From IMG/VR virus record IMGVR_UViG_3300029798_000001: DNA of 64,000 bases; one strand, written 5' to 3'. The stretch is from a virus. Lineage: Duplodnaviria > Caudoviricetes. The notes beneath the pieces were generated by a model. It made no database searches and was not told where the DNA came from. It worked only from the letters and a program-made list of their open reading frames with translations. Position 1 is the first letter of the stretch. Each line of letters opens with the position of its first letter. Positions 5,037-30,381 of this stretch are shown one piece after another. Made by a program: the position numbers and the translations under genes.

Positions 5037-5049
5037 ATACCTATAGAGC

Positions 5050-11070: not shown

Positions 11071-11090
11071 TTATCCGGTAAATACATACT

Positions 11091-14000
11091 ATGAATATTC
11101 AAGAATTGGATTCCTACAACCTTGGCGATGCTGTTAAGTTTAACAAGAAGTTAAACCCTCGGCTGTGGGGCAAAGACGAACATTTACTGCCGGAAGTGCG
11201 CGATCATCTATTAAAAATAGCCGATGATTTCCGCGAGTTCCTTGGAGTGACCGACCTACAACTAAAAGATATTACTATAAGTGGTTCAAATGCTGCCTAC
11301 ACCTATACTCCACATTCCGACATTGATCTACATTTAGTTGTAGATTTACCCGAAGCAGATGGGTCGGAAGTTTACCGTGAATTATTCGATGCCAAAAAGT
11401 ACCAATATAATGATATGCACCATATTAAAATTGGTGGATATGACATTGAAGTGTATGTACAAGATGCTAACAAGCCACATCGCAGTCAAGGTATCTATTC
11501 TATATTAAACAACCGATGGGTCGATGTACCTAAGCGTCGTCGACCCGAAGTAGATGACATCAGTATACGCAGTAAGTATGAAGATTTAAACCATCGTATT
11601 GAAGACGCGATTAAATCTAATAACCCCGACACAATAGGTGCATTGGCAAAAAAGATCAGCGATCTAAGACAAGCGGGCCTAGATGAACATGGCGAGTTTG
11701 GTCCAGAAAATCTAGCATTTAAAATGTTGCGTAGCCAGGGCATCATACAAAAATTATACGATGCTCGCAATGCCGCCAAAGATCACGAACTAAGTCTTAA
11801 AGAAAAAGCACCTCCAACAAGAGTTACATATGGATTTAAGACTCCGACTGTGGTAGAAGATGTTGGCATGTCGTGGGATGGCGTTAGCCCTAGTACTAAG
11901 ATGTTCCTAAGTGAAACAGAGTCAGACGAAGAAATACTTAAAGACTTTATTGAATTTTGCGTTAAAGAATTAAAAATTGAAAAGATGCCCGCGATCAAGT
12001 TGCGTAAAGATCCGCAATGGCCAGTGGTACACAAAACATTTGGTCGTTATATAAATGACCGGCACTTATTAGAAGTAGCCTGGGGTTCCCGCCATATTAT
12101 GGATGTACTACGCACTGTAGCCCACGAACTTACACATCGTCATCAACACGAGCGTGATGGCAACCGCATGGGACCCGAAGCTGGTGAAACTGGTAGTCCA
12201 TGGGAAAACGAAGCCAATGCCCGTGCCGGCGTACTAATGCGTGACTATGCTAGACTACATCCTGACTATTTTGCTGTAGGACAAGCCCAAGGCTTACACG
12301 CCGATGAGGTAACAGAAGCTTCTGTTATACAAAATCGTTTGCCGCCTAAGTTGGTAATAGGCGGCTATACATTTGTTCTTAATCCAACTACCCGCAATGT
12401 TACTGTTACTCATGGTGGCAAACCTTTTACTACCTACCATTATACTGGACTTAACAACTACGAATCATATGCAGATATTGCTTATCGTAAAATAGATCAA
12501 ACCAAATCAAGCGAGTTGGCAGATATAGCTAAAAGAGATCGTGCCAGCCCCACAGCGGCTCAACGTAGTTTTGAATACCCAACTGATTCCAGATATCAAG
12601 TTGCCATGCCCAATCAAGATCTTGACCAACTATATCGTCAGCACGATCAAGCAACAGCGCAACACGGAATCGTGGGCGGCATTACAGATTTTGGCAAATA
12701 CAGTTCCTTGGCCAAACGACGTAGACAGGCCGCACAAGCACAGGCCGACGAAGTTAAAGAAGCCAATCCAAATCAACAGTTGTCTTTGTATCGACCTGAT
12801 GGCACCACATACCGTGGTGAAAAAATGCCAGTGTTAGATCCAAACGATTTCCACAGTGACACCAATCCTCGAAAGCGTGTTGATCAAGTTACCCATCAAG
12901 ACTTAGCCAACAGGACTGCACCTGACCTGGTGGATCCTATTGAGCGGACTGAACGCAAGATTGACTTGGACCGATTAAAAAATGTAATTCGTGCCAACAT
13001 GAAAGATCTACTGTCAACTGAAACAGCAGTATTAAACATGCGTTACTGGAAAGACTTGACCTTGGAACAAACTGCACAAGCTCTGGGACTCACTCCTGAG
13101 CGTGTAAGACAAATAGAAGCCAAGGCCTTGAGAAAATTGCGGCATTTTTCCAAGAGCGATCAATTAAAACCGTTTGTAGAACCGCGGCTCACATGGCCAG
13201 GCATAAAAGAAGCTGTGGGCTACATTCCTACCGCGGCAGAAAAAAATGATCCTAGATTCAGCATGGCACTTACACAGGATATCCGTCCAGGACAACTAGG
13301 CAAAGAAGCAAACAAATTAAAATTAAAAACCAACAGTCAAGGCCAGCCGCAGATAGCTAATCCCAATGGCCTGTTTGAGAAATTAGCACTAGAGTTAGCA
13401 CAATTTAAAACGGTATCAGAGTCAGTAGAACAGTTAGACGAAGTGCGTATGGCTCCTAGCAACCTAATGCAGTGGGCCACCAGTCCAGAAGCCAAAGGCG
13501 TCCGTGCTGGTTTTGAAGCAGAGTTAATTTTCCGTGACACACAGCGTGATGATGACGAAGACTATGAAATGGAACCCGACTATGATCAAGATGAGCGTTG
13601 CCGTAGTATCAGTCAAGTAATAGACTTTTTTGGCGGTGGTGACTATGGCATGAGTAGTCGTGCATTAAACCGATTGCAGGAACAACTAGATGAAGCCTAC
13701 ATGGAGTGGCTTGATGAACAAATGATCTCTGACTTCAAACACGAAGCCGAAGATTTAATTCGTAAAGTATTAGTTGACGAAGGCGATTGGGATCTTGACA
13801 ACGAAATACAAAAGCAGTTGGCATTGATAGACGACCTAACAGATGACCAAATGAATGCTATTATACAAGCTGGCGAGCGGGCTCCTAAGTTTACAAGCAG
13901 TAAAGAAAAGGTATTATACGCAGAAGCTAATCCGTTATATGAAAAGTATTTAGATGCACAAGAAGAAGCCGAAGACCTGTTAGATGAGTTAGTTCAAGAT

Positions 14001-15851
14001 CATCTTAAAGCACAAGATGGTATTTACGATGCTGCCCTAGATGATTTCCGCGACAATTATTACATTGATGATGATAGTGGGTTTTTTGACGATGCCGGCC
14101 TACGATATATGAGTGACATAGCCAATAACTATGATGCAGAATGGCCCTACATGACCGGCGGTAATTCAGGCTCTGGCAGTCGTGATTGGGATAGCCTTAA
14201 AGATAGTTTAGAAAATACTATTGATATGCCAGTTAAAGTTAGCTCGGGCTATCACAATGCCACACGCAAAGAAGGTTTATGGATTATTGAACCTGATTCA
14301 AGCCTAACACCCGATGACTCCGATGACATGGGACTAGAAATCGTAAGTCCACCTATGCCACTATTGATGGCCCTGGAAAAATTACAAGCAGTCACAGACT
14401 GGGCCAACAGCGATACGGGCAATGCCTACACTAATAGTTCAACTGGCCTACACATGGGCGTTAGTGTTCCATTTAAAGGTGGTGATGTTGACTATCTTAA
14501 ACTAATCCTGTTCCTAGGTGACGAATATGTATTACAGAAGTTTGGTCGCGAAGCCAATACCTACTGTAAATCAGCTATGAGCAAGTTTAAAGAAAATATC
14601 AAAGGTGGTCGTGCTGACCCAGCAGGTGCGCTAAAACTCATGCAACACGGCCTACTTGAACTGGCACATAAAGAAATACAAAAAGGTGTAGGCGATGGCA
14701 AGTATACTTCGGCACATATACAAAACGGCTATATTGAATTCCGTAGTCCAGGTGGTGATTGGTTAGCTGAAGAGTCGGCTGACCCAGAAGTATTACAAAA
14801 CACTATGTTGCGTTTTGCCCGTGCTATGAGTCTTGCCGCTAACCCCAGTGAAGAACGCAGAGAATATGCCAAGAAGTTATACAAGTTAATTGCTCCTGAA
14901 GGTGACAGCGAGTTTGCATTGTTTAGTCAGTTTGCCGCGGGCGAACTCTCAGCAGAACAACTTAAGAAGCGTTGGGCTGAAAAGACCATCGGCACTGAAA
15001 AGAAAATGAATCAGCGTTGGCAATTATTCCAATTTGATAAGATTGCTGACCAATGGTTGCCAGTTCCCGGGCAGAGCTATAATGGCTACTCCGAAGATGA
15101 AGTTAAAAATAGAATATGGAGTAAGTTTGGGCGTGAAGCACTAGACTCCGGCGAATACGAACTACGCAACATGAGTGAAGACCAGCAGTGGGAAGTCTAC
15201 GATGTAAACACTGGTGAGACACTTGAGATTGTTGCAGGTAAGAACAAGGGCGAAGTAGCCGACAAAGTCTACGACAAGTATGCGGAGCAGGGAATTGGAT
15301 TTAATGTTCGACCATACGAAGATCCGGCAACAATGACTCCTCGTGCCAAGTTGGCCAAGCGTATTGCAACCAAGAAACCAGAACCGCAAAAACCTGCACA
15401 GGCTACAAACGAACGCGGTGTTCCTTATTGGGAAGTATATGAACTTGAAACTGGACATGTTGTCCATACTTTACTAAGCGACGATCTACCAGACGCTGTC
15501 ACAGACGCATACAATTGGCTGACTAGCATTGGTGCTGAACAACCAGACCTGTTTAAAGTGCGTCCTAAAATGAATGCCGACACTCCGGTCAAAGACATTG
15601 CACCCGATGTTGCTCAGAACTTTGGAGACGATTCAATGGCCGCCTACGAGAGGAACAGTGATCGCATTGATGCTATCAGAGCCGGACAAAATGCTACAGA
15701 CAGAGTAGGGTCCTGGAGCATATACGATGTTACCTTGGGGCGTGAAATCAGCAGAATGACCGATGTTCCGTGGCAAGAAGCCAGTGATCGTGCCGACATG
15801 CTCGAACGCAGTACTGGACATAATATGTCGGTCAGAGGGTTATCAGCATGA
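11091..15851 (+). CDS. 1586-aa multidomain polyprotein: Pol-beta-type nucleotidyltransferase, HExxH peptidase, sigma70 region 4 HTH, amidoligase, C-terminal repeats
   Basis: SGSN...SDIDL; HELTH...ENEANA; LTLEQTAQALGLTPERVRQIEAKALRKL; EPDSSL/GLEIVSPP/STGLHM/IEFRSPG; TAAATA at 11079. Confidence 0.8.
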   Translation: MNIQELDSYNLGDAVKFNKKLNPRLWGKDEHLLPEVRDHLLKIADDFREFLGVTDLQLKDITISGSNAAYTYTPHSDIDLHLVVDLPEADGSEVYRELFDAKKYQYNDMHHIKIGGYDIEVYVQDANKPHRSQGIYSILNNRWVDVPKRRRPEVDDISIRSKYEDLNHRIEDAIKSNNPDTIGALAKKISDLRQAGLDEHGEFGPENLAFKMLRSQGIIQKLYDARNAAKDHELSLKEKAPPTRVTYGFKTPTVVEDVGMSWDGVSPSTKMFLSETESDEEILKDFIEFCVKELKIEKMPAIKLRKDPQWPVVHKTFGRYINDRHLLEVAWGSRHIMDVLRTVAHELTHRHQHERDGNRMGPEAGETGSPWENEANARAGVLMRDYARLHPDYFAVGQAQGLHADEVTEASVIQNRLPPKLVIGGYTFVLNPTTRNVTVTHGGKPFTTYHYTGLNNYESYADIAYRKIDQTKSSELADIAKRDRASPTAAQRSFEYPTDSRYQVAMPNQDLDQLYRQHDQATAQHGIVGGITDFGKYSSLAKRRRQAAQAQADEVKEANPNQQLSLYRPDGTTYRGEKMPVLDPNDFHSDTNPRKRVDQVTHQDLANRTAPDLVDPIERTERKIDLDRLKNVIRANMKDLLSTETAVLNMRYWKDLTLEQTAQALGLTPERVRQIEAKALRKLRHFSKSDQLKPFVEPRLTWPGIKEAVGYIPTAAEKNDPRFSMALTQDIRPGQLGKEANKLKLKTNSQGQPQIANPNGLFEKLALELAQFKTVSESVEQLDEVRMAPSNLMQWATSPEAKGVRAGFEAELIFRDTQRDDDEDYEMEPDYDQDERCRSISQVIDFFGGGDYGMSSRALNRLQEQLDEAYMEWLDEQMISDFKHEAEDLIRKVLVDEGDWDLDNEIQKQLALIDDLTDDQMNAIIQAGERAPKFTSSKEKVLYAEANPLYEKYLDAQEEAEDLLDELVQDHLKAQDGIYDAALDDFRDNYYIDDDSGFFDDAGLRYMSDIANNYDAEWPYMTGGNSGSGSRDWDSLKDSLENTIDMPVKVSSGYHNATRKEGLWIIEPDSSLTPDDSDDMGLEIVSPPMPLLMALEKLQAVTDWANSDTGNAYTNSSTGLHMGVSVPFKGGDVDYLKLILFLGDEYVLQKFGREANTYCKSAMSKFKENIKGGRADPAGALKLMQHGLLELAHKEIQKGVGDGKYTSAHIQNGYIEFRSPGGDWLAEESADPEVLQNTMLRFARAMSLAANPSEERREYAKKLYKLIAPEGDSEFALFSQFAAGELSAEQLKKRWAEKTIGTEKKMNQRWQLFQFDKIADQWLPVPGQSYNGYSEDEVKNRIWSKFGREALDSGEYELRNMSEDQQWEVYDVNTGETLEIVAGKNKGEVADKVYDKYAEQGIGFNVRPYEDPATMTPRAKLAKRIATKKPEPQKPAQATNERGVPYWEVYELETGHVVHTLLSDDLPDAVTDAYNWLTSIGAEQPDLFKVRPKMNADTPVKDIAPDVAQNFGDDSMAAYERNSDRIDAIRAGQNATDRVGSWSIYDVTLGREISRMTDVPWQEASDRADMLERSTGHNMSVRGLSA

Positions 15852-16807
15852 GAGCCCAAGAGTTTATCTTTGAAGAGTATCAACCGAAGCCTGCAACATT
15901 TGCCGACGGTACTCTTAAGCTGAGCCGTCATTTGTTGACTCGTAGTGCCCAGAGAGAAATTTCCATGCCAGATATAATGGCAGTACTACAACGACTCGAA
16001 GCATTGCGTGGCAAAGATCTACGGCAGTTACCCCCAACTGGTTTTATCGTTAAAACACCAAATGATTTTGAATTGGCTATAATTAAAAGCCAGGATATCA
16101 ATACTAAAAAAATAGAATATGTAGTAGCAACAGTTCGTAAACGATTAACACCTAGCCCAGGCCAACGAATTATATATTTAGAAGATCAAGTAGACGAAGG
16201 CTGGCGAGATGTAGCTGCTGGTGTTGCTACGGCTGGAGCACTGGCTCTAGGATCTCCACAGGCTGATGCTAAAGCTATGCCCGGGCCAGGCCCGTCAATA
16301 CAAGCGCAAGCGGCAATGACACCCGTAGACAAATTACGAACTGCCGCAAAGGCCAATGGCATTCAAGGCACAGAGTTAGCACAATTCCTAGCACAGTGCG
16401 CCCACGAAAGTGCCGATTTTAATAGCATGGAAGAACATGGTGATTCCAATTACTTTGCCAAAAAATACGATCCTAATTATGCTCCAAAGACAGCCAGGAT
16501 ACTGGGCAACACACAAGTTGGTGACGGTGAACGCTACAAGGGCCGTGGCTTTATACAACTAACTGGCCGTGACAATTATACCCGAGCCGGGAAGGCATTG
16601 AACTTACCATTGGCGGATAATCCAGCACTAGCAGCTCGTCCAGATGTTGCCGCTGTGATAGCTGTATGGTATTGGAAGAATCGTGTGGCCAGTAAAGTAA
16701 AGAATTTCCACAACACTCGACAGGTAACCCGTGCTATCAATCCTGCGGCTAAAGGCCTACAATCACGGAAGGATCAATTTAAAGCATATCAGGTGGCCCA
16801 ACGATGA
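15848..16807 (+). CDS. Two-module protein: small RNase-like (BECR/DUF4258-like) module plus GH19 lysozyme
   Basis: AQFLAQCAHES and YKGRGFIQLTGRDNY (GH19, strong); N-module HLLTRSAQREI (weak). Confidence 0.75.
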   Translation: MRAQEFIFEEYQPKPATFADGTLKLSRHLLTRSAQREISMPDIMAVLQRLEALRGKDLRQLPPTGFIVKTPNDFELAIIKSQDINTKKIEYVVATVRKRLTPSPGQRIIYLEDQVDEGWRDVAAGVATAGALALGSPQADAKAMPGPGPSIQAQAAMTPVDKLRTAAKANGIQGTELAQFLAQCAHESADFNSMEEHGDSNYFAKKYDPNYAPKTARILGNTQVGDGERYKGRGFIQLTGRDNYTRAGKALNLPLADNPALAARPDVAAVIAVWYWKNRVASKVKNFHNTRQVTRAINPAAKGLQSRKDQFKAYQVAQR

Positions 16808-17409
16808 GATTATACGAAATAGCCCGCATACCACAAAGCGAACTAGGTGACTGGGGCGATAAGGATACACTTGAGCCAATGACTACTCCGCCCAAGAATC
16901 GTCGACCCCTACCCGGTGGTAGTGGCTACACTTATGCTGTAAACCGAGGCGATCCCGAGTTTATGGAGATTATGATTTTTGAAGGTGACACATTGGCCGC
17001 AGAACTAGATTTATTTGCCACTCTTGACCCGTTAAAGACCTGGCGTGTCGAAACTGTAATAACCGATCCAGACTATCGTGGCAAGGGTTTAGGCAAAGCC
17101 TTGTATGGTATTGCTCTTAACATACTTAAACTTACAATTGAAGCCGGAGAAACACAGACCAAATTTGGACAACAGATGTGGCTTATGTTAAGCAGTATTC
17201 CCGGAGTAGAAGTCCTGGGTTATGCTATGGAATCAACTGATAGGTATCGTCCAAGACCGGGCGATCAAGTGGTAGATAAAAATGATACCTGGACTCGCTA
17301 TACATTCCCTGTAGAGCCCGGACGGCGTAGCATGCGTAGTACACGCCGCGGAACTGGCATTTATAGTAGTCAGTACGTTAGCATGATAGCAAAGTGGACA
17401 GGCCAATGA
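16804..17409 (+). CDS. GNAT-family acetyltransferase
   Basis: Motif A VITDPDYRGKGLGKALY. Confidence 0.75.
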   Translation: MRLYEIARIPQSELGDWGDKDTLEPMTTPPKNRRPLPGGSGYTYAVNRGDPEFMEIMIFEGDTLAAELDLFATLDPLKTWRVETVITDPDYRGKGLGKALYGIALNILKLTIEAGETQTKFGQQMWLMLSSIPGVEVLGYAMESTDRYRPRPGDQVVDKNDTWTRYTFPVEPGRRSMRSTRRGTGIYSSQYVSMIAKWTGQ

Positions 17410-17618
17410 GATTCCAAGAAATCCTCGAAGCTGTAAAAACCAACCCTGGTACAAATTATAAACTATGGGTGGCATCAGTTAAGATCAAACAACCTAACTA
17501 TGTGGGCTATATCGATGTCACTGCTACAGCTCCCAATATCCAAATAGCCCGTACACTAATGAAAGCCCAGTACGGTGTACAAGACTGGGAAATTGGCAGT
17601 ATCAAAGAAGTAAAATAA
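17406..17618 (+). CDS. Small protein with MRxxE(F/I) leader
   Basis: ATG at 17406 overlapping the upstream stop; MRFQEILE. Confidence 0.65.
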   Translation: MRFQEILEAVKTNPGTNYKLWVASVKIKQPNYVGYIDVTATAPNIQIARTLMKAQYGVQDWEIGSIKEVK

Positions 17619-17657
17619 GACTACATACCCACCAAGTAAAATTGCACTAAATACAGC

Positions 17658-17951
17658 ATGACCAAGCAATTTATCCGTTTGCTGTGTGATGTTGATTGTG
17701 AGTGGGAAAGTTTCCCACCCATATATCGTGCCTATGTCAACGACGAATTGTTTGCGGAACGCACCTGGCTGTGGACCGATTGTTATCTCGAAGAACTGTT
17801 TCAGATTGAAGCCGAGCCCGGTGAATACACTATACGCTATGAATTAGTTCCTCCACATCTGGCCCGGCTAACTGTGAAAAATATGCGTGTAGATCACGGC
17901 CCAGGAACCGTGGATAATAATGTATTAAGGATTACCAATGAGACTACATGA
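17658..17951 (+). CDS. Hypothetical protein
   Basis: TAAATA at 17648. Confidence 0.6.
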   Translation: MTKQFIRLLCDVDCEWESFPPIYRAYVNDELFAERTWLWTDCYLEELFQIEAEPGEYTIRYELVPPHLARLTVKNMRVDHGPGTVDNNVLRITNETT

Positions 17952-18150
17952 ATTTGTTGATTTAAAAGAAGACGGCGGTGCCAGCAGTGGAAGCACTTGT
18001 AGCGGCAGTATAGCCCCTGTAGTTACTGCGTTAGGCGGTACGATTAGTAGAAATAGCGGTAGTTTCTTTAGTGGAGTAAGCACCTCAGATCCGACCCCAA
18101 ACACACCTAAAAAATATAAAAAAAAATCTAGGTTTCAGAATAGTCTTTAA
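17938..18150 (+). CDS. Small G/S-rich protein with MRxxEF leader
   Basis: MRLHEFVDLKE; 3' end overlaps the convergent endonuclease gene. Confidence 0.55.
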   Translation: MRLHEFVDLKEDGGASSGSTCSGSIAPVVTALGGTISRNSGSFFSGVSTSDPTPNTPKKYKKKSRFQNSL

Positions 18151-18811
18151 CTATTTTCCAATCTTTATAGATTTCTCTTTTACCTTGTGCTAGTGCTCTT
18201 ATAGGGACTCTTCTAAGTTTTAATTTTTTGCTAAACTCGTAGGGAGTTTCTTTATATTCTTCTCCTGTTTTTTCGTTCTTAAAAACATAAAGGGTATGAT
18301 CATATCCGGGATTATTTTTTCCAATCTTAGATCTTGATCCAAATGTCTTTTTATAATCATCGGTAAAATATCGTCCTTTGGTCCATCCTGTTGGAATTTG
18401 GGTTGTTCCTTTGATCTTTTTGTTTTTACTGCCATTATTAATCCAAATAGTTCCATACATGGGATTATTTTTGCCAGCATTATTAATTACACATTTTTTC
18501 TTAAAGTCTTCTCCGCGATCACGACCCGCTACACCGCCAGGTCCACCGCCAGTTTCACGAATACGATTTGCCCAGGCTGGATCATTGACGATATTCCACA
18601 GATCGCTATAATAACGACCTGTTTGTTTCATTTCTTCTTTGTTTGTAGTTTCGAGTAGTATTTCGGTATTGACATCATACCCATATTCTTCTATATGAGT
18701 AGTCCAATCAACCCCAGATCCTTGGTATTTAAACGGATCTCTTTTTGTTTGTCCTAGGTATTGCAGACCTGTTTTGTTATGGGTCTTTTTGTAAAGGTAG
18801 TAAATACTCAT
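18128..18811 (-). mobile_element. Free-standing GIY-YIG (Seg-like) homing endonuclease, antisense
   Basis: YYLYKKTH...LQYLGQT...YQGSG; NUMOD-like GKNNPMYG and WINNG motifs; own TAAATA and GGAG RBS on the minus strand. Confidence 0.8.
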
Positions 18812-18874
18812 GCTGATTGCTCCTTCAAGCGTTAGAGTAGTTGGATATCCCCATATCGCGAACTACACATAAAC

Positions 18875-18893
18875 ATATTTATGGCATAAATAT
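18875..18893. promoter_or_regulatory. Back-to-back late promoters forming a perfect inverted repeat
   Basis: ATATTTATG-G-CATAAATAT gives CATAAATA on both strands, between the endonuclease (-) and dps (+). Confidence 0.7.
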
Positions 18894-18921
18894 AAAATAT
18901 AATAACATTAAAGGAACAGTT

Positions 18922-19362
18922 GTGTTAGCTGAATTATTAAAAACTCTGCTTGCTAGTCAATTTGCTTACTATTTAAAAGCTACTTTCTTCCATTGGAATT
19001 GCGAAGGAGCAGATTTTTATCAGCTACACAAATTTTTCCAAAAAATTTACGAAGATGCCTATTCTGCTGTAGATACTATAGCTGAAGAAATTCGCACTCT
19101 TGATGAATATGCCCCCGGTAGCTTTGAACGCTTTGCCGAACTTTCACAAATACAAGGACAAACTAAAGTTCCTAGAGCTAGGCTCATGATTGAGGAATTG
19201 TTGGCCGATAGTCAGACCATGATTGATCTACTCAATCAAATATTTGTTGTTGCAACCAAAGAAAACAAACAAGATATTGCTAATTTTATGGCTGAGCGGT
19301 TAACGGCGCAAAACAAATATATGTGGCAGTTAAAAAGTTTCCTAAAAGAAGCAAGGGCATGA
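18922..19362 (+). CDS. dps: Dps/ferritin-like protein
   Basis: FHWNCEGADFYQLHKFFQKIYED...DTIAEEIR; likely GTG start behind the AAGGA RBS. Confidence 0.85.
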   Translation: MLAELLKTLLASQFAYYLKATFFHWNCEGADFYQLHKFFQKIYEDAYSAVDTIAEEIRTLDEYAPGSFERFAELSQIQGQTKVPRARLMIEELLADSQTMIDLLNQIFVVATKENKQDIANFMAERLTAQNKYMWQLKSFLKEARA

Positions 19363-19365
19363 TCC

Positions 19366-20841
19366 GTGTCACAAGACCATAACGATATCTATTCTATTGT
19401 AGAACGTCTTCGTATGCTTGAAGAAGGCTTAAACACGAATCAACGAAGTGTTAATCAACTTTCGGCCACATTTCGACCAAAAACAGTAGCAGTGCTTACT
19501 GCCAAAACTGATCCTAAAAATCCCCTGGCCGGCAAGTTAGTTGGTGGTTGCGAGGAAAGTGAAGAGCTTGATGATGACAATGCTATTAATAATGCAATAG
19601 ATCCAGAAAGAGATCGCAATACTATTGCCTCTGAAAGTCGTGTAGAAGAAGATGTCCTGGATAAAGTTAAAAGTAGTTTTTCAGACTATCTAAAAAGTAT
19701 TGAGGACAAGTATCGAGATTCTCACTTGAAAGATAAAAAACACGAAGATACAGATTTACGAGCAAAAGATAAAACAGATCGGGATCTACGCCCTAAACAA
19801 GTTACTGCCGAAGGCTTAGAACAACAATATCTATGGCACGGGTCAAGACAAAAGATTCCTATGTTAGAACCACGCCAATCAGTAGATACAGGTGGTGCGG
19901 CAGGTAGCAATCAAAATGCTATCTATGCTACAAGTGATCCTAAAGTTGCTATAGCAATGGGACTTACAACTCCTGGTAGCGATACAGGTATGTTCCCTAA
20001 CGATCCTCAGATGGTCTTGTTTAGTGGCAAGATTAGAAAAGGTGAAAATGTTTACCTACACAAGGTGCCGATGAATGGACCTGATGGCAAACCGCAGTTT
20101 GTTCAAGGTGGCAACAGTAGAGAGTGGTATTCCAAGCCAGGTGTTAAAGAAATTAAGCCACTAGAAGTAAAAGCAGTTCCTGTGGACCAGTATCTGAACT
20201 TGATTAGACAAGCAACACCGCAAGATTTAGAACTACAGAAAAAGTATATGAAGCAAGGTATAGCGGAAGCCATCGATACACAGGCATATTATATTGTTAA
20301 TGCTAACAAGAATTATTCAATCTTGGCAGGTCCGTTTGCGTCACGCGAGCAAGGCCGCGCAGAATTTCAAAAAATAATACATCAATATCCTGGCGACTTG
20401 AAAGATCTTAGTTTACTACAAGGTCATGTATTACAGCAATCACAAAAAGATGCACTGGATGAACCAGATAGCAAAGAGCCGTGGCATGGTATTAAAGATC
20501 CTGAGCTATTAAAAGATTTAATTGCTGATGCACAAGTTATGGACTACGATGAGTTCTACGATGAATACAGTAGTATGTTTGATGATCCAGAAGAATTCTG
20601 GGATAACTATCATAACGACGAGCAAGATATAGTAGAAAGCGCACCAGTTAAGACTATTACCAATGAATGTGGGTTGTGGGAAGTGCATGGTGATGATCAT
20701 AGCGGGTTTGCAATTCGCCACGGTAATCGTCAACTACCCACACGCTTTAAAAATTTAGAAGAGGCCGAGTTGGCCTTAGAGATGTTTAATATTCGTCGCC
20801 GTCGGCGTGATGACGCAGCGGATTACATAGACGAAGCATAA
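19366..20841 (+). CDS. Polyprotein containing an ADP-ribosyltransferase-like module
   Basis: LWHGS...LEPR...AIYATSD (HG[ST]...Y[AF]T pattern of ART folds) bounded by TAE|G and QGIAE|A. Confidence 0.65.
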   Translation: MSQDHNDIYSIVERLRMLEEGLNTNQRSVNQLSATFRPKTVAVLTAKTDPKNPLAGKLVGGCEESEELDDDNAINNAIDPERDRNTIASESRVEEDVLDKVKSSFSDYLKSIEDKYRDSHLKDKKHEDTDLRAKDKTDRDLRPKQVTAEGLEQQYLWHGSRQKIPMLEPRQSVDTGGAAGSNQNAIYATSDPKVAIAMGLTTPGSDTGMFPNDPQMVLFSGKIRKGENVYLHKVPMNGPDGKPQFVQGGNSREWYSKPGVKEIKPLEVKAVPVDQYLNLIRQATPQDLELQKKYMKQGIAEAIDTQAYYIVNANKNYSILAGPFASREQGRAEFQKIIHQYPGDLKDLSLLQGHVLQQSQKDALDEPDSKEPWHGIKDPELLKDLIADAQVMDYDEFYDEYSSMFDDPEEFWDNYHNDEQDIVESAPVKTITNECGLWEVHGDDHSGFAIRHGNRQLPTRFKNLEEAELALEMFNIRRRRRDDAADYIDEA

Positions 20842-23800
20842 GGAAAAATAAATGTTTGCATTAGACCTATTCAACACAAAATACGAGAAGTCACTACAAG
20901 AGGGTGCCACAGATAACACGACCGAACATCTGCTTAAACCTCTCCATCTCCGTGCTGCAAACATTCTTACACAGTTGCGTTCCGGACATACTACTCCTGA
21001 AAAAGTAGCGGCCCTTACAAAAGAATATGAAGATTTAGTTGCAGAGCGTATGAGTATTCTTAAAGGTGAACACCCAGAATCAACAAACGAAATGGGTTAC
21101 GGTAGTCTAGGCGAAGATGATATGATTCCAGTTGGTCGTATGCAACCCGGTACACCAGAATATGCTGCCGCCCGTAATCGTTCTGTAAAATACGCAGAGT
21201 TGACACCAGATTACACAGGCGGGCATAAAACTGCTGGCCCTACTACTGTCGGATATAAAAAAGCAACAAACAAACCGTTGGTCCCAGGCGAAGTTGAAGT
21301 GGCGGAAGCCGGATTACCGGGCAATTTACCTCCAGAACAAATTCCGGGTAAAGAAGATTTACTAAAAGGTAAGGGTCGTCAAACTTACGAAGAAAATATA
21401 GACGAAGGGTTTGGCCCTGTTGGTAGTAAGGGATTAATGAATGGCAATTTTGCTACATTTATGAAAGCTCGCCAAAACAGGACACCAGTTACATTAGAAA
21501 TCGGTGGTGAGGAGTTTAGACTTACACCAACAATGATGGATGCTATGGCTAAGAAATATCTTGCAGATAAAGCCGCTAGTGATGCAGCCCCTACTAATCG
21601 AGATATAAAATTAATAGCTGTTAACAATTATCGTGCATTTGGTTATCCACAATTGATGAGAGCATTTATCGACGGTGTTGCTACTCACGACAACACTCCT
21701 CCGGCTAATGTGCCAGGTGAACAGTTGCCAATGTTCGAAAGAACTCAACAGGTTCAAAAAAAAAATTCTAAAAAAGCCGATCCAGATTTAGGTGCCGGTA
21801 CAGCTCGAGATGCGACGGTACAGAGAGAACTTCAAAAGGTTCGGGCCCGCCATCCTAATGCCCGTAGCGATATCGAAGCCCTGGTCAAAGACGAAATAGT
21901 TAATCAAGAACGAGTTGACCAGGAATTGTCTCAACAACAAGATAATATTCAACAACAAACAGCTCAATTAGCACAATTAGGTAGTGTAAATCGACAACAA
22001 GATACAAAAATAAACAGTTTACAGCAACAGTTAGCTACCGCGGTACAGTCTATTAAATCTGCACCCGTTACTCCAGCTACTACAAAACCCGCCAGTATGC
22101 CTGTTAGTAAGCCTGCTAGTGTTGCTCCTGCAACTACTACAGTGCCAAGTAGTATTACAGCAGCATTGCCGGTACCACAGACAGCCAAGGATCAAGAAAT
22201 TTACGATAAAGTTCAAAGTCTCGAAACAGAGCTTAAAGACAAAATTGATGCCATGGCTAGCTGGAATGCTATTGCACAAAAAGATCCTCAATCTAATAAT
22301 GAACTTACAGCACTGCGCAAAGAAGTTGAGCGCACTAAGAAAGAATTACAGCAACAAATTATTAAACTTAAACCAATTAAAAAGAAACCAACAACTCAAG
22401 CTCCGGCGTTATCAGACCCTAATGTAATTGATATAGATGCTTGGGAGGTTCCGGGGATGGCAGTACCCGAAGTGCCTGATAATATAAAAACCGAGCCAGG
22501 AACTGCTACGCCCGCAAAAGAATTACCGATTGATCAATTAGATCACCAAGTTGATACTACTCCATTCGCCGGTGGTACTAAAAACAATCAATGGGGTCCA
22601 AAAAATATGCCAGGTGGCAGATTTACAGTACAAGATGTTGACCCTTACGACATCGGAGTTCATGAAGCTGTTGAACCCGGTGAAGAAATCTCAACAAATG
22701 AATTACTATACCGTGCGGCTGTTGAGTATATGCAACACATGGGCCGCGAAGGTCAGCCAGTTGACTACGAAACAGCCGTTAAGTTGGCAGCCAAACATTA
22801 CCATATTCCTTACCGCCCAGGTATGGTTCCAGAATTACATGCCAAGCGTCAAGAACTAGATGCTAAACTTGATGCGGCTATTAGAGCTCGTCAAGCCGAG
22901 CGTGGTGCCCGTAAACAACGACAACTGGCTCGCACAGCGCCAACTACCCCAGAACAGGAAAAGAAAATGCAAGACTATTGGTCCAAGAATGCGCCACAGG
23001 CTACAAGAGTAAAAGCACCAACACGAAGTTTAGAAGAAAATCAACAGTTACATGTCGGTGATCCTATTGTTGTTACAGCACCCAACGAGTTTGAAGGTAA
23101 GACTGGTGAGATCTACGACTTTGCGCCAAGTGGCAAGTTTGTTATTGTCAACTTGTACAATCACGGCAAACACAGTATGCACCTAAGTGATGTTGAATAC
23201 AATCAATATGCCAACGACCAAGATGAGAAAGAATTTTGGAATGGTGATAAAGAAGTTAATGAAAGCAATATGAGTGAGTTAGATGCAATGCGTCAAGATC
23301 TTGAATTAATGAATGATCGCCAATTTAAAGTTGCCTATGGTATAAGCAAGGTAGCATTTAGGCAAAAGTATCGTGCATTATTGAATCCAGCACCTCAACA
23401 AGATGTTCCGGTAGAAGAAGGATGGCAAGACTTCAACAAGGTAGAGCCATATGCTGTTTGTTTAGCTGGCAAGCCTGTTAAGAAGTTTGACTACTATGAA
23501 GAAGCTCGCCGCTTCCACGATAACTGGAAGAAGAAGTTGTACCGCGAAGGCAACAAAGAAAAAGCAGATAAGATTACCTTGATGCCCATCATGGACGAAG
23601 GTGATGATCAGAATGGTCAACCTAGGGCTGGATTACCTGCAAATTTTGCAAACAGAATAATGGCATTAGATTTTCCACAAAGAAAAATATTTAGAGATTA
23701 TATAAATTCATTTAACAAAATTCGCCAGGCATCGGCCGATCTTAATAAGATGTTGGCTGGATTTCCTAAAGATATTATTGACGCTTATCAACAGTTAACT

Positions 23801-25144
23801 CCTGAGCAACAACAGTCAGTGTCAATGGTGTTAGAACCTGGTTGGGAAGAAGAAAACCAACTGGTACAAAAATATAAAAATGGAGTTGTAAAAAAACAAG
23901 GCGTGACAGAAGCTGGTAGCCCAGCACAACAGGCTGCCATCGCCATTGCTATGAAGCGGGCTGGTAAGAAACCTAAGCAAGCAGATGAGGGACAATTTAG
24001 CGTCACTGATGATCCATCTGCACATATTAAAGTATTATTTCTTAAAACAATAAACGGAAATGAATATCGTTTGGTAAAACAAGGCGGTGTGTATAAGATT
24101 TATGTAAACAGAAGTAAGAAAACCAAACAAGAATTTCCATCTTTTGACCTTGCTAAAAAAGCATTACAACAATTATTATTAAATGCAGTGAATACAGATG
24201 AAGCGTATACACCAAGTCCAGCTAAACCGTTTCGCAATCCTAGAGGCTTTAATAAACAAGGCACAGGTGTAGGCAATAAATTAGCACAACAAACTCGTGC
24301 TGAGTTAGCAAACATACAACCAAGGAAAGGTACACCGGTTCCAGCCAAAGAATTTGCTCAAGGTGTTTTGAAAGATTTAAAGAAGGTGAATGTAAAAGAA
24401 GCAGAAGGTAGTTGGATTGTGTATGATCCCGAAACCAAACAGATCAAGAAGCGTTTTAAAACACACACCGCAGGCAAGAGCTATGCTCAAACTCACGGCC
24501 TAGGATTTGCCAGTAGTGAATACTACTTTGACCGTGTTAAAGAACCGGTTAATGAACTTGATGTTAATACCTTAAAGAGTTATGCAGACAAGCGTGGAGC
24601 ACAAGTGGCCGCAATGAAGGCCGACAATCCTAATCCTCAAACAGGCAGTAAAGAATGGGTTCAACAAGCTGTTCCGGCACAACAAGTAGGTCTTGCAAAT
24701 CGTAAGATTGCTCGTAAAGAACGCCAGCAAGGTGTGGCGGAGGACTGGATTGATGACGATGCCGCAGAGCCATTGGCCAAATACTTTGCTGACTTATACT
24801 ATGGCGATTTTAGTGCTACTATGAAAGTTAAACTAACCTCACACATTTATCAAGCTATTCAAAACGGTGAGTTGAGTATTGAACAACTTAAAGCTGACAT
24901 TGATATGTTGGAAAAAGAAAAAGGCATTAAAGAGCAAGGTGTGGCGGAAGGCAAGGGTCTGGCTAAGAAGGTAAAGATTGTTAAAGGTCCAGATGCAGGC
25001 AAGACAGGTTGGATTAGAGAAGTTAAACATGGTGCTTTCAAAGGTGCTCCAAAAACTTATTATATTGATTTAGATGATGGTGGTCAGGCAAATAACTTAC
25101 CGGCCACAGCATTACGATTAGTTAAAGAACAAGGCATGGCGGAA
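20254..25144 (+). repeat. Dispersed 15-nt repeat CAAGG(T/C)RTRRC(G/A)GA(A/G) encoding QG(V/M/I)(A/T)E
   Basis: Copies at 20254, 23897, 24728, 24935 and 25130; partial copies at 21299 and 9786. Confidence 0.9.
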
Positions 25145-25930
25145 GGCTATACTCCGGATACAAACTATTCTTATACTATTGTAGGCAACGGTGACGAATC
25201 TAAAGCGTATGATAGTAAAGAAGAAGCGCGAGATGCCATGCGTAAACTTGGCGCTGGTTATAAGATTAAACGCAAGCCACGCACAAGTGCTCGTAGTGTT
25301 AAAAAACATTTTAGTAATCGCAATATGGAACTTGGTGAAACACACGAACCACAGAAGTTTATTGTTACTATCAATGGTAAAGCCACTAGCCCACTATACC
25401 CAGATATGGCAGATAAATTATACATAGCGGCCAAGCGGGCACAACCTAATGCTCGTGTTGAAAAGACTGTGGCACAAACTACGGAGCGTCAAAAAGGTAT
25501 TGATCGTGTTAAAGCTGGCTACGGTGATGAAGATGCATTAGAATTACATGAACAACTGCCATCAACACCGCCGGCTAATCGCAAAGAGTATTTAGATCAA
25601 CGCGATAAGTTATTCCGTATGTTGGCAGTTGACACCAACCCAGTTAATAAGCAGATTATTAAACAGGCATTAAAAGATTTAGACAATCGATATGGTTCTA
25701 TAAAAAATCCAGTAAATGAAGAAAATAGCACCAGCAGTGAAGCTGTTGAAATAGCCCTAATTCGTCGTGTATTAGTAGCACATACTGATTTAATCATGGA
25801 TTTTGGTCTTGACAAGGTTACACAAGCCATCGAGGAAGTTGCTTACAATGTTGGTGATGTGGATGAAATCGGCACCAGTGATGTTAGTGGCTGGATCCAT
25901 CAAGTCAAACAAATACTCGGTGTTGAATGA
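20852..25930 (+). CDS. 1692-aa modular polyprotein with many xxE|G/A/S linkers, coiled coil and two KOW/SH3-like modules
   Basis: Repeated QGVAE/QGMAE/QGVTE, VNE, VEE, IDE and MDE boundaries; VGDPIVVTAPNEFEGKTGEI and VKIVKGPDAGKTGWI resemble KOW. Confidence 0.75.
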   Translation: MFALDLFNTKYEKSLQEGATDNTTEHLLKPLHLRAANILTQLRSGHTTPEKVAALTKEYEDLVAERMSILKGEHPESTNEMGYGSLGEDDMIPVGRMQPGTPEYAAARNRSVKYAELTPDYTGGHKTAGPTTVGYKKATNKPLVPGEVEVAEAGLPGNLPPEQIPGKEDLLKGKGRQTYEENIDEGFGPVGSKGLMNGNFATFMKARQNRTPVTLEIGGEEFRLTPTMMDAMAKKYLADKAASDAAPTNRDIKLIAVNNYRAFGYPQLMRAFIDGVATHDNTPPANVPGEQLPMFERTQQVQKKNSKKADPDLGAGTARDATVQRELQKVRARHPNARSDIEALVKDEIVNQERVDQELSQQQDNIQQQTAQLAQLGSVNRQQDTKINSLQQQLATAVQSIKSAPVTPATTKPASMPVSKPASVAPATTTVPSSITAALPVPQTAKDQEIYDKVQSLETELKDKIDAMASWNAIAQKDPQSNNELTALRKEVERTKKELQQQIIKLKPIKKKPTTQAPALSDPNVIDIDAWEVPGMAVPEVPDNIKTEPGTATPAKELPIDQLDHQVDTTPFAGGTKNNQWGPKNMPGGRFTVQDVDPYDIGVHEAVEPGEEISTNELLYRAAVEYMQHMGREGQPVDYETAVKLAAKHYHIPYRPGMVPELHAKRQELDAKLDAAIRARQAERGARKQRQLARTAPTTPEQEKKMQDYWSKNAPQATRVKAPTRSLEENQQLHVGDPIVVTAPNEFEGKTGEIYDFAPSGKFVIVNLYNHGKHSMHLSDVEYNQYANDQDEKEFWNGDKEVNESNMSELDAMRQDLELMNDRQFKVAYGISKVAFRQKYRALLNPAPQQDVPVEEGWQDFNKVEPYAVCLAGKPVKKFDYYEEARRFHDNWKKKLYREGNKEKADKITLMPIMDEGDDQNGQPRAGLPANFANRIMALDFPQRKIFRDYINSFNKIRQASADLNKMLAGFPKDIIDAYQQLTPEQQQSVSMVLEPGWEEENQLVQKYKNGVVKKQGVTEAGSPAQQAAIAIAMKRAGKKPKQADEGQFSVTDDPSAHIKVLFLKTINGNEYRLVKQGGVYKIYVNRSKKTKQEFPSFDLAKKALQQLLLNAVNTDEAYTPSPAKPFRNPRGFNKQGTGVGNKLAQQTRAELANIQPRKGTPVPAKEFAQGVLKDLKKVNVKEAEGSWIVYDPETKQIKKRFKTHTAGKSYAQTHGLGFASSEYYFDRVKEPVNELDVNTLKSYADKRGAQVAAMKADNPNPQTGSKEWVQQAVPAQQVGLANRKIARKERQQGVAEDWIDDDAAEPLAKYFADLYYGDFSATMKVKLTSHIYQAIQNGELSIEQLKADIDMLEKEKGIKEQGVAEGKGLAKKVKIVKGPDAGKTGWIREVKHGAFKGAPKTYYIDLDDGGQANNLPATALRLVKEQGMAEGYTPDTNYSYTIVGNGDESKAYDSKEEARDAMRKLGAGYKIKRKPRTSARSVKKHFSNRNMELGETHEPQKFIVTINGKATSPLYPDMADKLYIAAKRAQPNARVEKTVAQTTERQKGIDRVKAGYGDEDALELHEQLPSTPPANRKEYLDQRDKLFRMLAVDTNPVNKQIIKQALKDLDNRYGSIKNPVNEENSTSSEAVEIALIRRVLVAHTDLIMDFGLDKVTQAIEEVAYNVGDVDEIGTSDVSGWIHQVKQILGVE

Positions 25931-26568
25931 GATTTGGTGAATTTAAACGAGCCAGCCAAGAACACCTTGACGAAATTCTAGTTCGTTTATGTGCTATGGT
26001 GGTTGACGGTCAGAAGAAAGACCCTGACCATTATGGCATGGTTGCTGCTGCGGTATTAGATCCTGATAATAATTGTGTTGCGGCTACTAGTTATAATGAA
26101 GATGGCAAGTGGGTGCATGCCGAGAGGGCGGCAATAGATGCATATCATAGTCGTGGTGGCCGTATTCCAGCCGGCAGTATTATTATTACAACCTGTAGTC
26201 CATGTAGTGAAAAAATGGATGACCGCTACAGTGAAAGTTGCACAGACTTAATTAATGATACAGGTGTAGACTTAGTCTATGCTGGCTATGAAGATCCCAC
26301 CCAACATGCAGAGCAGGCCAAGTTCAAGGTTGAAGTGTCCGACAATCCAAAGATACACGAACTATGCCATGTATTTGCATCAACCTTTATGGACAAAGAA
26401 GCGGCACAGTTAGATGAACTCAGCTTCTTAGGATCGCCATGCACCAAAGACTGTTCGGGTCATCGTGCTGGCTATGCCTGGAGCCAAAGCAAAGGTGGGC
26501 GTGTTGCCCAAAGTCCTTTTAGTCCTAGTTTCAATAATGGTAGCCAACTTCAAGTGGATGGTAAGTAG
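25927..26568 (+). CDS. Zn-dependent deaminase (CDA/dCMP deaminase superfamily) with C-terminal Cys module
   Basis: VHAERAA (HxE) and CSPC...C motifs; MRFGEF leader. Confidence 0.75.
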   Translation: MRFGEFKRASQEHLDEILVRLCAMVVDGQKKDPDHYGMVAAAVLDPDNNCVAATSYNEDGKWVHAERAAIDAYHSRGGRIPAGSIIITTCSPCSEKMDDRYSESCTDLINDTGVDLVYAGYEDPTQHAEQAKFKVEVSDNPKIHELCHVFASTFMDKEAAQLDELSFLGSPCTKDCSGHRAGYAWSQSKGGRVAQSPFSPSFNNGSQLQVDGK

Positions 26569-26652
26569 AGTTATGAACGAATACCCAGTATACCCAGAAC
26601 AACAAGGTGAGGAGGATCGACCAGTCCTTCCTTACTCACCTGTTTAAAGAAT

Positions 26653-26726
26653 AGCCTTAGGACCGCACTAGTTGCGAGGCTGGGTGGTTACTACCCTGGG
26701 TCATCCGATTCGCTACCGGAATCCCA
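26653..26726 (+). ncRNA. Candidate structured RNA
   Basis: GC-rich intergenic island with nested stems AGCC/GGCT, CGCA/TGCG, GGGTGG/CTACCC, TGGG/CCCA and TCCG/CGGA. Confidence 0.35.
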
Positions 26727-26750
26727 AAAAGTAACTTTACTAAAATATCA

Positions 26751-26778
26751 TTGACTTTCTAAAATAATACTGTATAAT
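26751..26778 (+). promoter_or_regulatory. sigma70 promoter
   Basis: TTGACT-16 nt-TATAAT. Confidence 0.7.
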
Positions 26779-26803
26779 AGTAAGACTTACTTAGGAGATT
26801 TAT

Positions 26804-27064
26804 ATGTCAGACCGTATTTTTACAGCAGAAGAGACCAAAAAACTTAATCAAATCATAAATGAGGGAATTCAAGTCACAATGGAAATCGAAACTCTTCAAG
26901 GTGGATTAACTGATACCGTAAAAGCAATTTCGGAAGAACTCAACATTAAACCATCTATCCTCAAAAAAGCAATCCGCCTGGCACATAAATCAGAATTTGG
27001 CCGTGAGCAGGATGATCACAGTTTGCTCGAGCAAATACTTACACAAGTAGGTAAGACACTATAA
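26804..27064 (+). CDS. Small DNA-binding protein, T4 DsbA/GapR-like
   Basis: 86-aa helical protein with LTDTVKAISEELNIKPSILKKAIRL, next to the polymerase. Confidence 0.55.
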   Translation: MSDRIFTAEETKKLNQIINEGIQVTMEIETLQGGLTDTVKAISEELNIKPSILKKAIRLAHKSEFGREQDDHSLLEQILTQVGKTL

Positions 27065-29293: not shown

Positions 29294-29320
29294 ATACTAT
29301 GAAGATAGGAGTATCATCAT

Positions 29321-30280
29321 ATGCCAACATGTTTAGAGTGCGGGTATTCAGCCCCAAGATTACAGTGGACACACTTCAAATACAAATGTACCGGAAAATT
29401 CAAAAACGGTAATGAGTATATGTCCGCACACCCCGGTAGTGAGATAATAGATCCAGAATTAAAGAAAAAATACGGGTTTACACTTGACTCGGCTGTCAAA
29501 AAGTATGGTGCTGTGGAAGGTCAAAAACGATGGAATGAGTATTGTGATGCGCAGGCAACCACTAATACTTTTGAATACAAACATGAAAAATACGGTTGGA
29601 CCCGTGAACAGTTTGACGAGTACAATTCATCAAGAGCAGTAACCATTGCAAACATGATCAAACGACATGGTGAAGAAATTGGAGTTGCTAAATGGCAAGA
29701 ATATTGCGAACGACAAGGATATACCAATACCAAAGAATATTTTATTGAAAAGTACGGTGCAATCATTGGCGTTAAAAAATATATTGAGGTTAACAAGAAA
29801 AAGAAAAACCCACACGACCCGGTGAGTATTTCTGAAAAATTAGGAATTACCTTGGACGAGGCGGTAGACATTATCTTGTCGAGAGAAAATTCTGGAAGAA
29901 GATATATTAGTAATCTTGAAGAAGAATTTACAAACATGCTTGAAGATAAAGTAGGACCACTTGACTATACCTCAGCTAAACGACCATTTGGCAAATGGTC
30001 TCATTTATTGAATACCTATGTTGTATATGATATAAAACACGGCAATTGCATTATTGAATTCAATGGTGATTACTGGCATGCTAATCCCAACATTTATGCT
30101 GGCACCGCTACAATAAGAGGTGTCCCGGCGGTTGATATATGGCGCCAGAATGTGTTAAAATTACAAACAGCACAGGATTTGGAATTCAAAACCCTAGTGG
30201 TTTGGGAAACAGAATTTCGAAATGATAAAGTTGGAACAATTAATAAGGTAGCAGAATGGATATTACAAGAACAACCGTAA
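29321..30280 (+). mobile_element. Free-standing Vsr-like/PD-(D/E)xK homing endonuclease between the polymerase halves
   Basis: N-terminal CxxC...H zinc finger, repeated KYG..G..(R/K)W.EY units, C-terminal IEFNGDYWH and VVWE; TAAATA at 29291; RBS AGGAG. Confidence 0.85.
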
Positions 30281-30381
30281 AAAGTATTGATTGTCTCGGT
30301 GAGGTGGATGACTATGTGTATGATCTCAGTATAGAAGATCAAGATCCTTATTTTTTTGCCAATGACATATTGGTGCATAAT
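30256..30381 (+). mobile_element. Split intein C-fragment (42 aa, ends HN, +1 = Thr)
   Basis: Block F VYDLSI and block G HN. Confidence 0.9.

Follow-up and report, generated by a model that had tools for sequence, protein, structure and literature searches.

A candidate capsid-targeting leader on clustered genes of an uncultured T4-related giant phage

The principle of the capsid-targeting sequence (CTS) has been known from bacteriophage T4 since the 1990s, and the CTS that T4's internal proteins carry was reportedly described by Mullaney and Black in 1996. In the T4 record, the internal proteins IPII and IPIII begin MKTYQEFIAE and IPI begins MKTFKEFTST, while gp24 and Alt begin MAKINELLRE and MELITELFDE. 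For incorporation, the 10 N-terminal residues of IPIII are enough, with residues 4 and 7 serving mainly for targeting and residues 8 and 10 for processing, and the CTS has been suggested as a general loading route for varied proteins in T4-like phages (PMC9026906, a review of Black's work; the CTS of internal proteins is also reviewed in PMC3012670). Here, we describe a short leader, M-R-x-x-E-(F/I), that opens several genes in a 64,000-nucleotide stretch of viral DNA (Caudoviricetes; IMG/VR record IMGVR_UViG_3300029798_000001), the whole of which is referred to below as the window. In its fuller form, M-R-(hydrophobic)-x-E-(F/I)-(I/V/L)-x-E, sequence comparison makes it likely that this leader is a diverged capsid-targeting leader marking packaged, and probably injected, cargo.

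Two further systems offer points of comparison. The phiKZ-like giant phages (201phi2-1, phiKZ, SPN3US) have ejection proteins with long N-terminal propeptides (PMC5694885, PMC10052503), and packaging of the polyvalent proteins of phages and conjugative elements has been inferred from gene context (Iyer et al. 2017, PMC5512222). Literature searches returned nothing relevant on CTS outside the T-even and phiKZ-like phages, and no paper was found that reports a CTS-like leader for the Rak2/PA5oct/Atu_ph07 branch or for related lake phages. The mechanism itself is textbook T4 and the lineage is new; also new is the quantitative link, reported below, between the leader and published virion proteomes.

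The leader, its spread and the virion proteomes

The strict leader opens five genes of the window, at positions 15848 (MRAQEFIFE), 16804 (MRLYEIA), 17406 (MRFQEILE, from an ATG lying 12 nt inside the longest open reading frame (ORF)), 17938 (MRLHEFVDLKE) and 25927 (MRFGEF). A looser leader in the same register, M-x-x-x-[ED]-[LFI], heads the products of the genes at 11091 (MNIQEL, 1586 aa) and 20852 (MFALDLF, 1692 aa). An earlier note on this DNA had quoted six of these N-termini, MNIQEL included, and all six were confirmed at these coordinates. Each strict leader is encoded as ATG AGA nnn nnn GAR with TTT, ATA or ATC as the sixth codon, and because codons 3 and 4 differ between the genes, conservation is at the protein level. 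The pattern M[RK]xxE[FILVM] occurs 10 times in a six-frame translation of the window, with only these five occurrences opening a real gene. Similarly, M[RK]xx[ED][FILMVY] stands at the start of 5 of the 80 called window genes versus 2 of 434 internal methionines (P ~3e-4), and it is found at 8 of 1906 internal methionines in G001, a complete relative introduced below.

The leader genes are strongly clustered. Ten plus-strand genes, interrupted only by one minus-strand ORF, make up the block 11091-26568; five of them carry the strict leader, versus none of the 70 genes elsewhere in the window (Fisher P = 1e-5). It was not found on the replication, nucleotide or lysis genes of the window. Past residue 12, no BLASTP similarity at E<0.01 was detected among the nine block proteins, which bears out the description of the leader as sitting on otherwise unrelated proteins. 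The bodies behind the strict leaders are a GH19 lysozyme, a GNAT protein, a deaminase and two small basic proteins.

When one residue is deleted after position 2, the window consensus M-R-(A/L/F)-x-E-(F/I)-(I/V)-x-E aligns with the T4 sequence M-K-T-(Y/F)-x-E-F-I-x-E. On this alignment alone, window positions 3, 6, 7 and 9 correspond to T4 positions 4, 7, 8 and 10. The T4 Y/F4 then pairs with A, L, F, L and F at window position 3 and T4 F7 with F, I, I, F and F at position 6, and a hydrophobic-x-Glu site closes the leader in three of the five genes (MRAQEFIFE, MRFQEILE and MRLHEFVDLKE). With the acidic-aromatic pair kept, the likeness to the T4 CTS remarked upon in the earlier note holds on closer comparison. 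A similar N-terminus is seen in T4 gene 61.1 (NC_000866 18966-19130), which lies beside the primase gene among replication genes and encodes a 54-aa hypothetical protein starting MKTFKEFIKE, almost the IPI leader.

By its DNA polymerase, the window phage is an uncultured giant, T4-related and on the Rak2/PA5oct/Atu_ph07 side. The polymerase shares ~50% identity with its counterparts in Pseudomonas phage PA5oct and Sinorhizobium phage Phosso, and 41-45% with those in Salicola phage SCTP-2 and Agrobacterium phage Atu_ph07. Closer relatives are IMG/VR contigs from lake phages, linked to the window through the GH19 protein or the DNA polymerase. Runs of leader genes recur in these contigs: consecutive genes begin MRARDY, MRAQDFLIE, MRAKEFIVE, MRAYQFLLE and MRAQEFTKQLDE in one (L001), and MRFKEF, MRAREF, MRARDFITE, MKSREVITE and MKAREF in another (L005). 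Altogether, the window and 85 related loci hold 112 distinct leader proteins in 23 sequence families. Although the search pattern left these positions free, position 3 is A, L, I, F or Y in 94 of 105 leaders, position 7 is I, V or L in 58 and position 9 is Glu in 32. Of 114 leader N-termini, 47% have a hydrophobic-x-Glu with its Glu at positions 8-11, versus 7% of 1346 others, an enrichment whose P value is inflated because the leader sequences are related.

The most informative relative, G001, is a complete 337,119-bp IMG/VR record with terminal repeats and a DNA polymerase 89% identical to that of the window. Its syntenic block contains proteins starting MNIHEL, MRAQEL, MRASEF, MLSLDLF, MRYQEI and MRISDF. 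G001 also has a head module in T4 order, consisting of portal, a small core gene, a 286-aa core-like gene, prohead protease, scaffold and the major capsid protein, which starts MSQELLEG...ALLEG. The Peptidase_S77 prohead protease is recognized at 1.6e-26 in G001 and 4.9e-27 in a second relative, G002, with the T4 gene order portal-core-protease-scaffold-MCP (major capsid protein), and the two relatives serve as proxies for the window phage. The small conserved gene after the portal gene carries the leader MKINDIITE in PA5oct and MKLTELFNPLTE in Atu_ph07, where both products are virion proteins, and begins MILKEIYE in G001. Two further N-termini in the G001 morphogenesis region (321129-324413), MKNFQEYLAE and MKSLKDYITE, stand in the exact T4 register (compare T4 MKTYQEFIAE and MKTFKEFTST), and the MKNFQEYLAE protein matches a virion structural protein family.

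Two cultured relatives allowed the leader to be compared with the contents of the particle. Atu_ph07, with a 490-kb genome, has a published virion proteome obtained by electrospray ionization tandem mass spectrometry (ESI-MS/MS; PMC6102473, Table S5), the rows of which were mapped to ORFs by molecular weight, 127 of 140 in consistent genome order. ORFs starting M[RK]xx[EDQ][LIFMV] were in the virion in 21 of 29 cases versus 100 of 800 others (odds ratio (OR) 18, P = 9e-13), and those with the same pattern plus x(1,2)E in 16 of 17 cases versus 105 of 812 (OR 108, P = 2.6e-13), P values that overstate independence because 13 of the 24 leader-bearing virion proteins belong to one paralogue family (gp53-63, gp408 and gp482; MRWEQLTE type). 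The 24 form 12 sequence families, and the leader heads about one fifth of the mapped virion proteins. Among them are gp199, which is the small gene after the portal; gp196 (MRWQDISSKKLTE, MRWQDI...), an amidoligase-domain protein detected with 14 peptides and encoded beside the portal gene; and gp381, which weakly matches the ART (ADP-ribosyltransferase) domain of polyvalent proteins. For PA5oct, virion membership was taken from the ESI-MS/MS notes in the GenBank record: 5 of 10 leader ORFs are flagged as virion proteins, the small gene after the portal included, versus 93 of 461 ORFs genome-wide. N-terminal motifs, propeptides and paralogues go unmentioned in both the Atu_ph07 paper (PMC6102473) and the PA5oct paper. 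The comparison of motif and virion proteome that the earlier note had called for therefore favours a packaging tag in these two phages. That reading is supported by evidence that is comparative throughout, and the accompanying idea of a usable protein-loading tool adds little, as a T4 CTS tool already exists.

The block 11091-26568 and its surroundings

The candidate cargo of the window likely comprises a second GH19 wall hydrolase, a GNAT protein, a deaminase-fold enzyme and two small basic proteins, and probably also the two giant multidomain proteins with the looser tag. These types match known or predicted packaged effectors, namely lysozyme, GNAT, ART and metallopeptidase-bearing polyvalent proteins (PMC5512222; T4 Alt).

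All ten genes described here lie on the plus strand. TAAATA, a T4-type late promoter core, is found at 11079-11084, 6 nt upstream of the first cargo gene. This gene (11091-15851; MNIQEL) encodes the 1586-aa multidomain protein of 'polyvalent' type, assigned by profile matches: an N-terminal nucleotidyltransferase-like domain (phrog_36119, 2.8e-39), Sigma70_r4 (1.6e-14) and Amidoligase_2 (1.5e-5), along with an HExxH motif (HELTH) near residue 350 that was spotted in the sequence and may mark a zincin-like metallopeptidase domain. At least two effector-type domains share one chain, and the amidoligase part (residues 1032-1267) is homologous to the Atu_ph07 virion protein gp196. The nucleotidyltransferase domain is no virion marker by itself, because its standalone homologues in cyanophage S-CRM01 sit among replication genes. 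Another homologue of this domain occurs in an unrelated, flavobacterial phage, Maribacter phage Molly_1 (MT732451.1), as one of five adjoining genes (11495-16557) that have a common N-terminal leader of their own (MKTGKIKTLIES, MNLKTLVETDKS, MNLKSLVESNKP, MKPEEIKSLVES and MKTTELKSLIES).

The next gene (15848-16807) encodes a 319-aa protein with an isoelectric point (pI) of 9.7, in which the leader MRAQEFIFE (15848-15874) and an N-terminal module are followed by a hydrophobic segment rich in Gly and Ala and then by a GH19 lysozyme domain (Glyco_hydro_19, 1.7e-11; phrog_181 endolysin, 7.5e-41). It is a second wall hydrolase, because a lysis cassette at 106-1706 has another, separate GH19-like ORF together with membrane and lipoprotein genes. 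The leader is kept in the relatives of the 319-aa protein in L001, L003 and L005. Matches in cultured phages are confined to the C-terminal part, and there is thus no cultured orthologue with the leader. The hydrophobic segment, at residues ~119-141 (AAGVATAGALALGSPQADA), resembles a signal or membrane anchor, and the L001 relative has the same kind of segment directly after the leader.

Three smaller leader genes follow. A 201-aa GNAT acetyltransferase (16804-17409; leader MRLYEI, 16804-16821) is recognized by Acetyltransf_1 at 5.1e-5, above the curated cut-off. A 70-aa basic protein of pI 9.3 (17406-17618; leader MRFQEILE, 17406-17429) belongs to leader family 3, with 9 distinct members in relatives, and a 70-aa Gly/Ser-rich protein of pI 9.7 with a basic tail (17938-18150; leader MRLHEFVDLKE, 17938-17970) to leader family 1, with 12 distinct members of 58-70 aa in relatives; in both families every member has the leader, the G001 orthologue of the latter protein starting MRASEFIVE. 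Between these two genes, a TAAATA late-promoter-like core (17648-17653) precedes a 97-aa gene without the leader (17658-17951), and the same arrangement is found in G001 (148340). The minus-strand ORF that interrupts the block (18128-18811, 227 aa) lies between the 17938 gene, which it overlaps by 23 nt, and a ferritin/Dps-like gene. It has no Pfam match, its N-terminus by eye is like that of a GIY-YIG homing endonuclease, and it looks like a mobile insertion because G001 has nothing at the same spot (148624-149242).

The ferritin/Dps-like gene (18841-19362; Ferritin, 8.3e-23; phrog_3636) stands in the middle of the putative cargo operon, directly after a small tagged protein, in the window and G001 alike, and the TAAATA at 18887 probably precedes its true start. 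It is followed by a gene for a 491-aa protein (19366-20841; MSQDHNDIYSIVE...) without the strict leader. Pfam profiles and PDB sequences gave nothing usable, the pairwise match to Atu_ph07 gp381 reached only E 0.007, and homologues of the ART-like part were absent from the related loci analysed; it was a fold search that identified the protein. An AlphaFold2 model built on 25 homologues (mean predicted local distance difference test score 79.5) has an ADP-ribosyltransferase fold at residues ~150-280. Its structural matches are dominated by the ART superfamily, with Tpt1/KptA at Z 7.1-8.3 and Arr at Z 5.9-6.9, and pertussis/cholera-type A subunits and PARPs are also among them; these are modest Z values, the best Tpt1 match (Z 8.3) aligning 91 residues at a root-mean-square deviation of 4.0. 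On the strength of this model, the 491-aa protein may be a counterpart of T4 Alt, placed in a cargo operon without a strict leader.

The block ends with a 1692-aa protein of no known family (20852-25930), for which a tblastn search gave no match and whose G001 orthologue starts MLSLDLF, and a 213-aa protein (25927-26568; leader MRFGEF, 25927-25944) with a cytidine/dCMP-deaminase-type zinc domain (dCMP_cyt_deam_1, 3.9e-10). Among the 120 best homologues of the deaminase, 57-99% identical, 107 start M-[RK]-x-[ST/G]-[DE]-F.

The three TAAATA sites of the window have a counterpart in G001, where 75 of the 421 genes are preceded by the motif at a distance of up to 60 nt. This set takes in the genes for portal, head, tail and baseplate as well as cargo operon heads, the orthologous cargo gene among them. 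No enrichment was seen for the full T4 late promoter octamer TATAAATA (3 copies versus 7.4 expected), and a scan for sigma-70 promoters and terminators stayed at background level.

Other genes of the window, likewise on the plus strand, merit a brief description. Just upstream of the block, at 4236-7388, are two genes, one for DnaJ (266 aa) and the other for a double AAA+ protein of ClpB/ClpA type (758 aa); in G001 this pair lies between tagged genes (133504-136625), and it might fold or unfold cargo. The DNA polymerase at 27143-31239 is in two pieces (716 aa and 327 aa) with a 319-aa ORF between them that belongs to phrog_22677, a phage family of unknown function; polymerase genes are also split or interrupted in Atu_ph07 and PA5oct. 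A radical-SAM gene at 34875-35939 has a weak N-terminal SPASM match (E 0.008; a G001 paralogue reaches 8.4e-14). SPASM matches number 8 in G001 and 10 in G002, about half of them above the family cut-off, and none in PA5oct or T4. Finally, 60984-62698 holds host-type genes for nitrogen uptake, the first encoding a nitrogen-regulatory P-II protein (3.5e-29) and the next an ammonium transporter (9.3e-112).

Points against a packaging tag and rival explanations

Several observations weigh against reading the leader as a packaging tag. The leader is only 6-9 residues long, and as a control, a regular expression of similar length gave 15 N-terminal matches in 267 T4 ORFs. Six of these are IPI-III, gp24, Alt and alt.-1, a duplicate of the Alt N-terminus, and two more are the baseplate proteins gp48 and gp54. 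A tag of such length is a good but imperfect predictor. In the window, the leaders MRLYEIARI and MRFGEFKRA lack a hydrophobic-x-Glu at positions 7-9 and have only Glu5 available. Single genes are therefore uncertain, chiefly those for the deaminase and the GNAT protein, because the precision of the T4 control is ~50% and both lack the second Glu site. A deaminase is, moreover, usually an early metabolic enzyme, and this gene is the last of the block and adjoins the replication genes. A 310-aa protein encoded downstream of the DNA polymerase starts with a look-alike, MKLS[END]L (31241-32173, plus strand, MKLSNLINY, in the window; 164605-165609 in G001; MKLS[DE]L in 11 relatives). This protein, which lacks the closing Glu and weakly resembles a tRNA methyltransferase (phrog_4752, 5.6e-5), counts as a false positive of the pattern or else as additional cargo. 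The paralogy behind the Atu_ph07 statistics counts on the same side, as does the half of the PA5oct leader matches that falls outside the virion list. The case for late timing, which comes from a 6-nt motif alone, is weak. Lastly, a megablast search of 15000-27000 against cultured phages gave no match, leaving the window phage without a close cultured relative.

The virion link would also be expected if the tag instead docked its proteins onto an external or tail-associated structure (fibres, whiskers or the baseplate, for example), so that they were plugged onto the surface and neither enclosed in the head nor cleaved. Virion proteomes give no location within the particle and do not separate head interior from tail or surface, a further point against a packaging tag, and the two baseplate proteins among the T4 control matches fit external docking as well. 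The largest Atu_ph07 leader family, gp53-63, also lies in a region (CDS 31-76; CDS, coding sequence) that the authors tied to unusual structural proteins of a whiskered phage (PMC6102473), which again speaks against head targeting. We nonetheless regard external docking as unlikely. The tagged proteins of the window are enzymes and tiny basic proteins rather than adhesin-like; the tag matches the T4 head-core signal at functional residues and carries a candidate head-protease site; the small gene that lies between those for portal and head protease bears the same type of tag; and the GNAT, deaminase-fold and untagged ART-fold proteins must reach the cytoplasm to act.

It is quite improbable that the tag instead serves another machine, as a recognition sequence for a ClpB-like unfoldase with DnaJ or for a radical-SAM/SPASM maturase, leading to remodelling, degradation or modification. 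The proximity of these genes is what recommends the idea: the window has the genes for DnaJ and the ClpB-type AAA+ protein 4 kb upstream of the block, and in G001 they stand between tagged genes; a SPASM/radical-SAM gene is also present in the window, and in G001 a tagged 64-aa gene (331268) directly precedes such an enzyme. Yet a SPASM match is missing from PA5oct and T4 and stays below threshold in Atu_ph07 (E 0.0026), although all three have such tags. None of the 8 SPASM matches of G001 falls in its cargo block at 130-155 kb, and for the block the maturase version was rejected on these grounds. Neither version predicts a virion link or a head-protease site. An absence of any protein-level function, with the pattern arising from translational coupling (ATGA), favourable early codons or chance in a short pattern, is more improbable still and hard to credit. 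Four of the five tagged genes do overlap the upstream stop as ATGA, which forces a second codon starting with A, and the pattern is short: five T4 N-terminal matches to the window-register regular expression, uvsY included, have no known packaging role. However, only the four tagged genes among the 23 ATGA-overlap starts of the window use AGA, so translational coupling does not explain the tag, and only one other such start (1703, MTIDEI) has [ED][FIL] at positions 5-6. No ATGA overlap accompanies the tag in the fifth gene or in several relatives. Residue classes are kept while codons 3 and 4 vary, with R/K, E/D and F/I/L interchanging across the 23 families, and neither the clustering within the window nor the virion link in relatives is accounted for by chance.

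Proposed route and comparison with known systems

If the leader is a packaging tag, its route can be modelled on T4, by analogy with which late timing, core binding, cleavage, location in the head interior and ejection are all inferred for the window phage. The block 11091-26568 would be transcribed late from TAAATA-type promoters. The N-terminal tag would bind the scaffold core of the assembling prohead, and tagged proteins would be enclosed as the shell forms. A T4-type (S77) prohead protease would then cut after the Glu of the hydrophobic-x-Glu site at positions 8-11 or, where this is missing, possibly after Glu5. The mature proteins would stay with the DNA and be ejected into the next host.

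Giant phages pack 90-130 different proteins per particle, and the function of these proteins and the rule by which they are sorted are mostly obscure. Were the leader such a sorting rule, the deaminase, GNAT and ART-fold proteins would become candidates for first-minute host takeover or counter-defence, and the question would be directly testable in lab-grown Atu_ph07 and PA5oct. If the tag directs proteins to the head interior, the genome of any uncultured relative would be enough to list its set of injected effectors. For the window, this set would contain a wall hydrolase, a GNAT protein, a deaminase-fold enzyme, small DNA-associated proteins and two giants, one with a sigma-factor DNA-binding region. 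More tentatively, at a little short of even chances, the tag could be a general address code of T4-related giant phages that is readable from sequence alone. The dialects of the tag (MKTYQEF in T4, MRAxEF here, MRWxQLTE in Atu_ph07 and MK(I/L)x(D/E)I in PA5oct) would then track co-evolution with the scaffold core. The candidate leader would extend the known T4 mechanism to new cargo and a new lineage.

The phiKZ-like phages are likewise giants with many virion proteins, and their head-internal, ejected proteins, targeted by propeptides that a protease related to T4 gp21 cuts after Glu, parallel the route proposed here. Their propeptides, however, are mostly >100 residues long and have no common short motif, whereas the window tag is short, shared and at the extreme N-terminus, and the DNA polymerase places the window phage on the T4-related Rak2/PA5oct/Atu_ph07 side. 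The polyvalent proteins have a parallel in the 1586-aa chain with its nucleotidyltransferase, HExxH, sigma-70 region 4 and amidoligase elements, and the neighbouring GNAT, lysozyme and ART-fold proteins are domain types predicted to be packaged and injected (PMC5512222). That study, in contrast, names no short N-terminal address tag, and 'amidoligase' and 'sigma factor' are absent from its text; most putative effectors of the window, moreover, are separate genes, each with its own tag.

The nearest counterpart is the T4 CTS itself, with several differences. The window tag is one residue shorter, with Arg (AGA) replacing Lys-Thr, and the second Glu is present in only three of the five window genes and about half of the relatives. 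The candidate cargo consists mostly of enzymes, encoded in one block beside the DNA polymerase gene, and the looser tag is found on proteins of 1586 and 1692 aa, far bigger than the cargo of T4, which ranges from 8 to 76 kDa. Shared with T4 is a tag of 6-11 residues at Met1 of unrelated proteins, built as basic-(x)-hydrophobic-x-acidic-aromatic-aliphatic-x-Glu, along with a T4-family prohead protease and head module in a close relative of the window phage. Small basic proteins reminiscent of the internal proteins of T4 are among the candidate cargo, and the untagged protein with a predicted ART fold gives the operon a possible likeness to T4 Alt.

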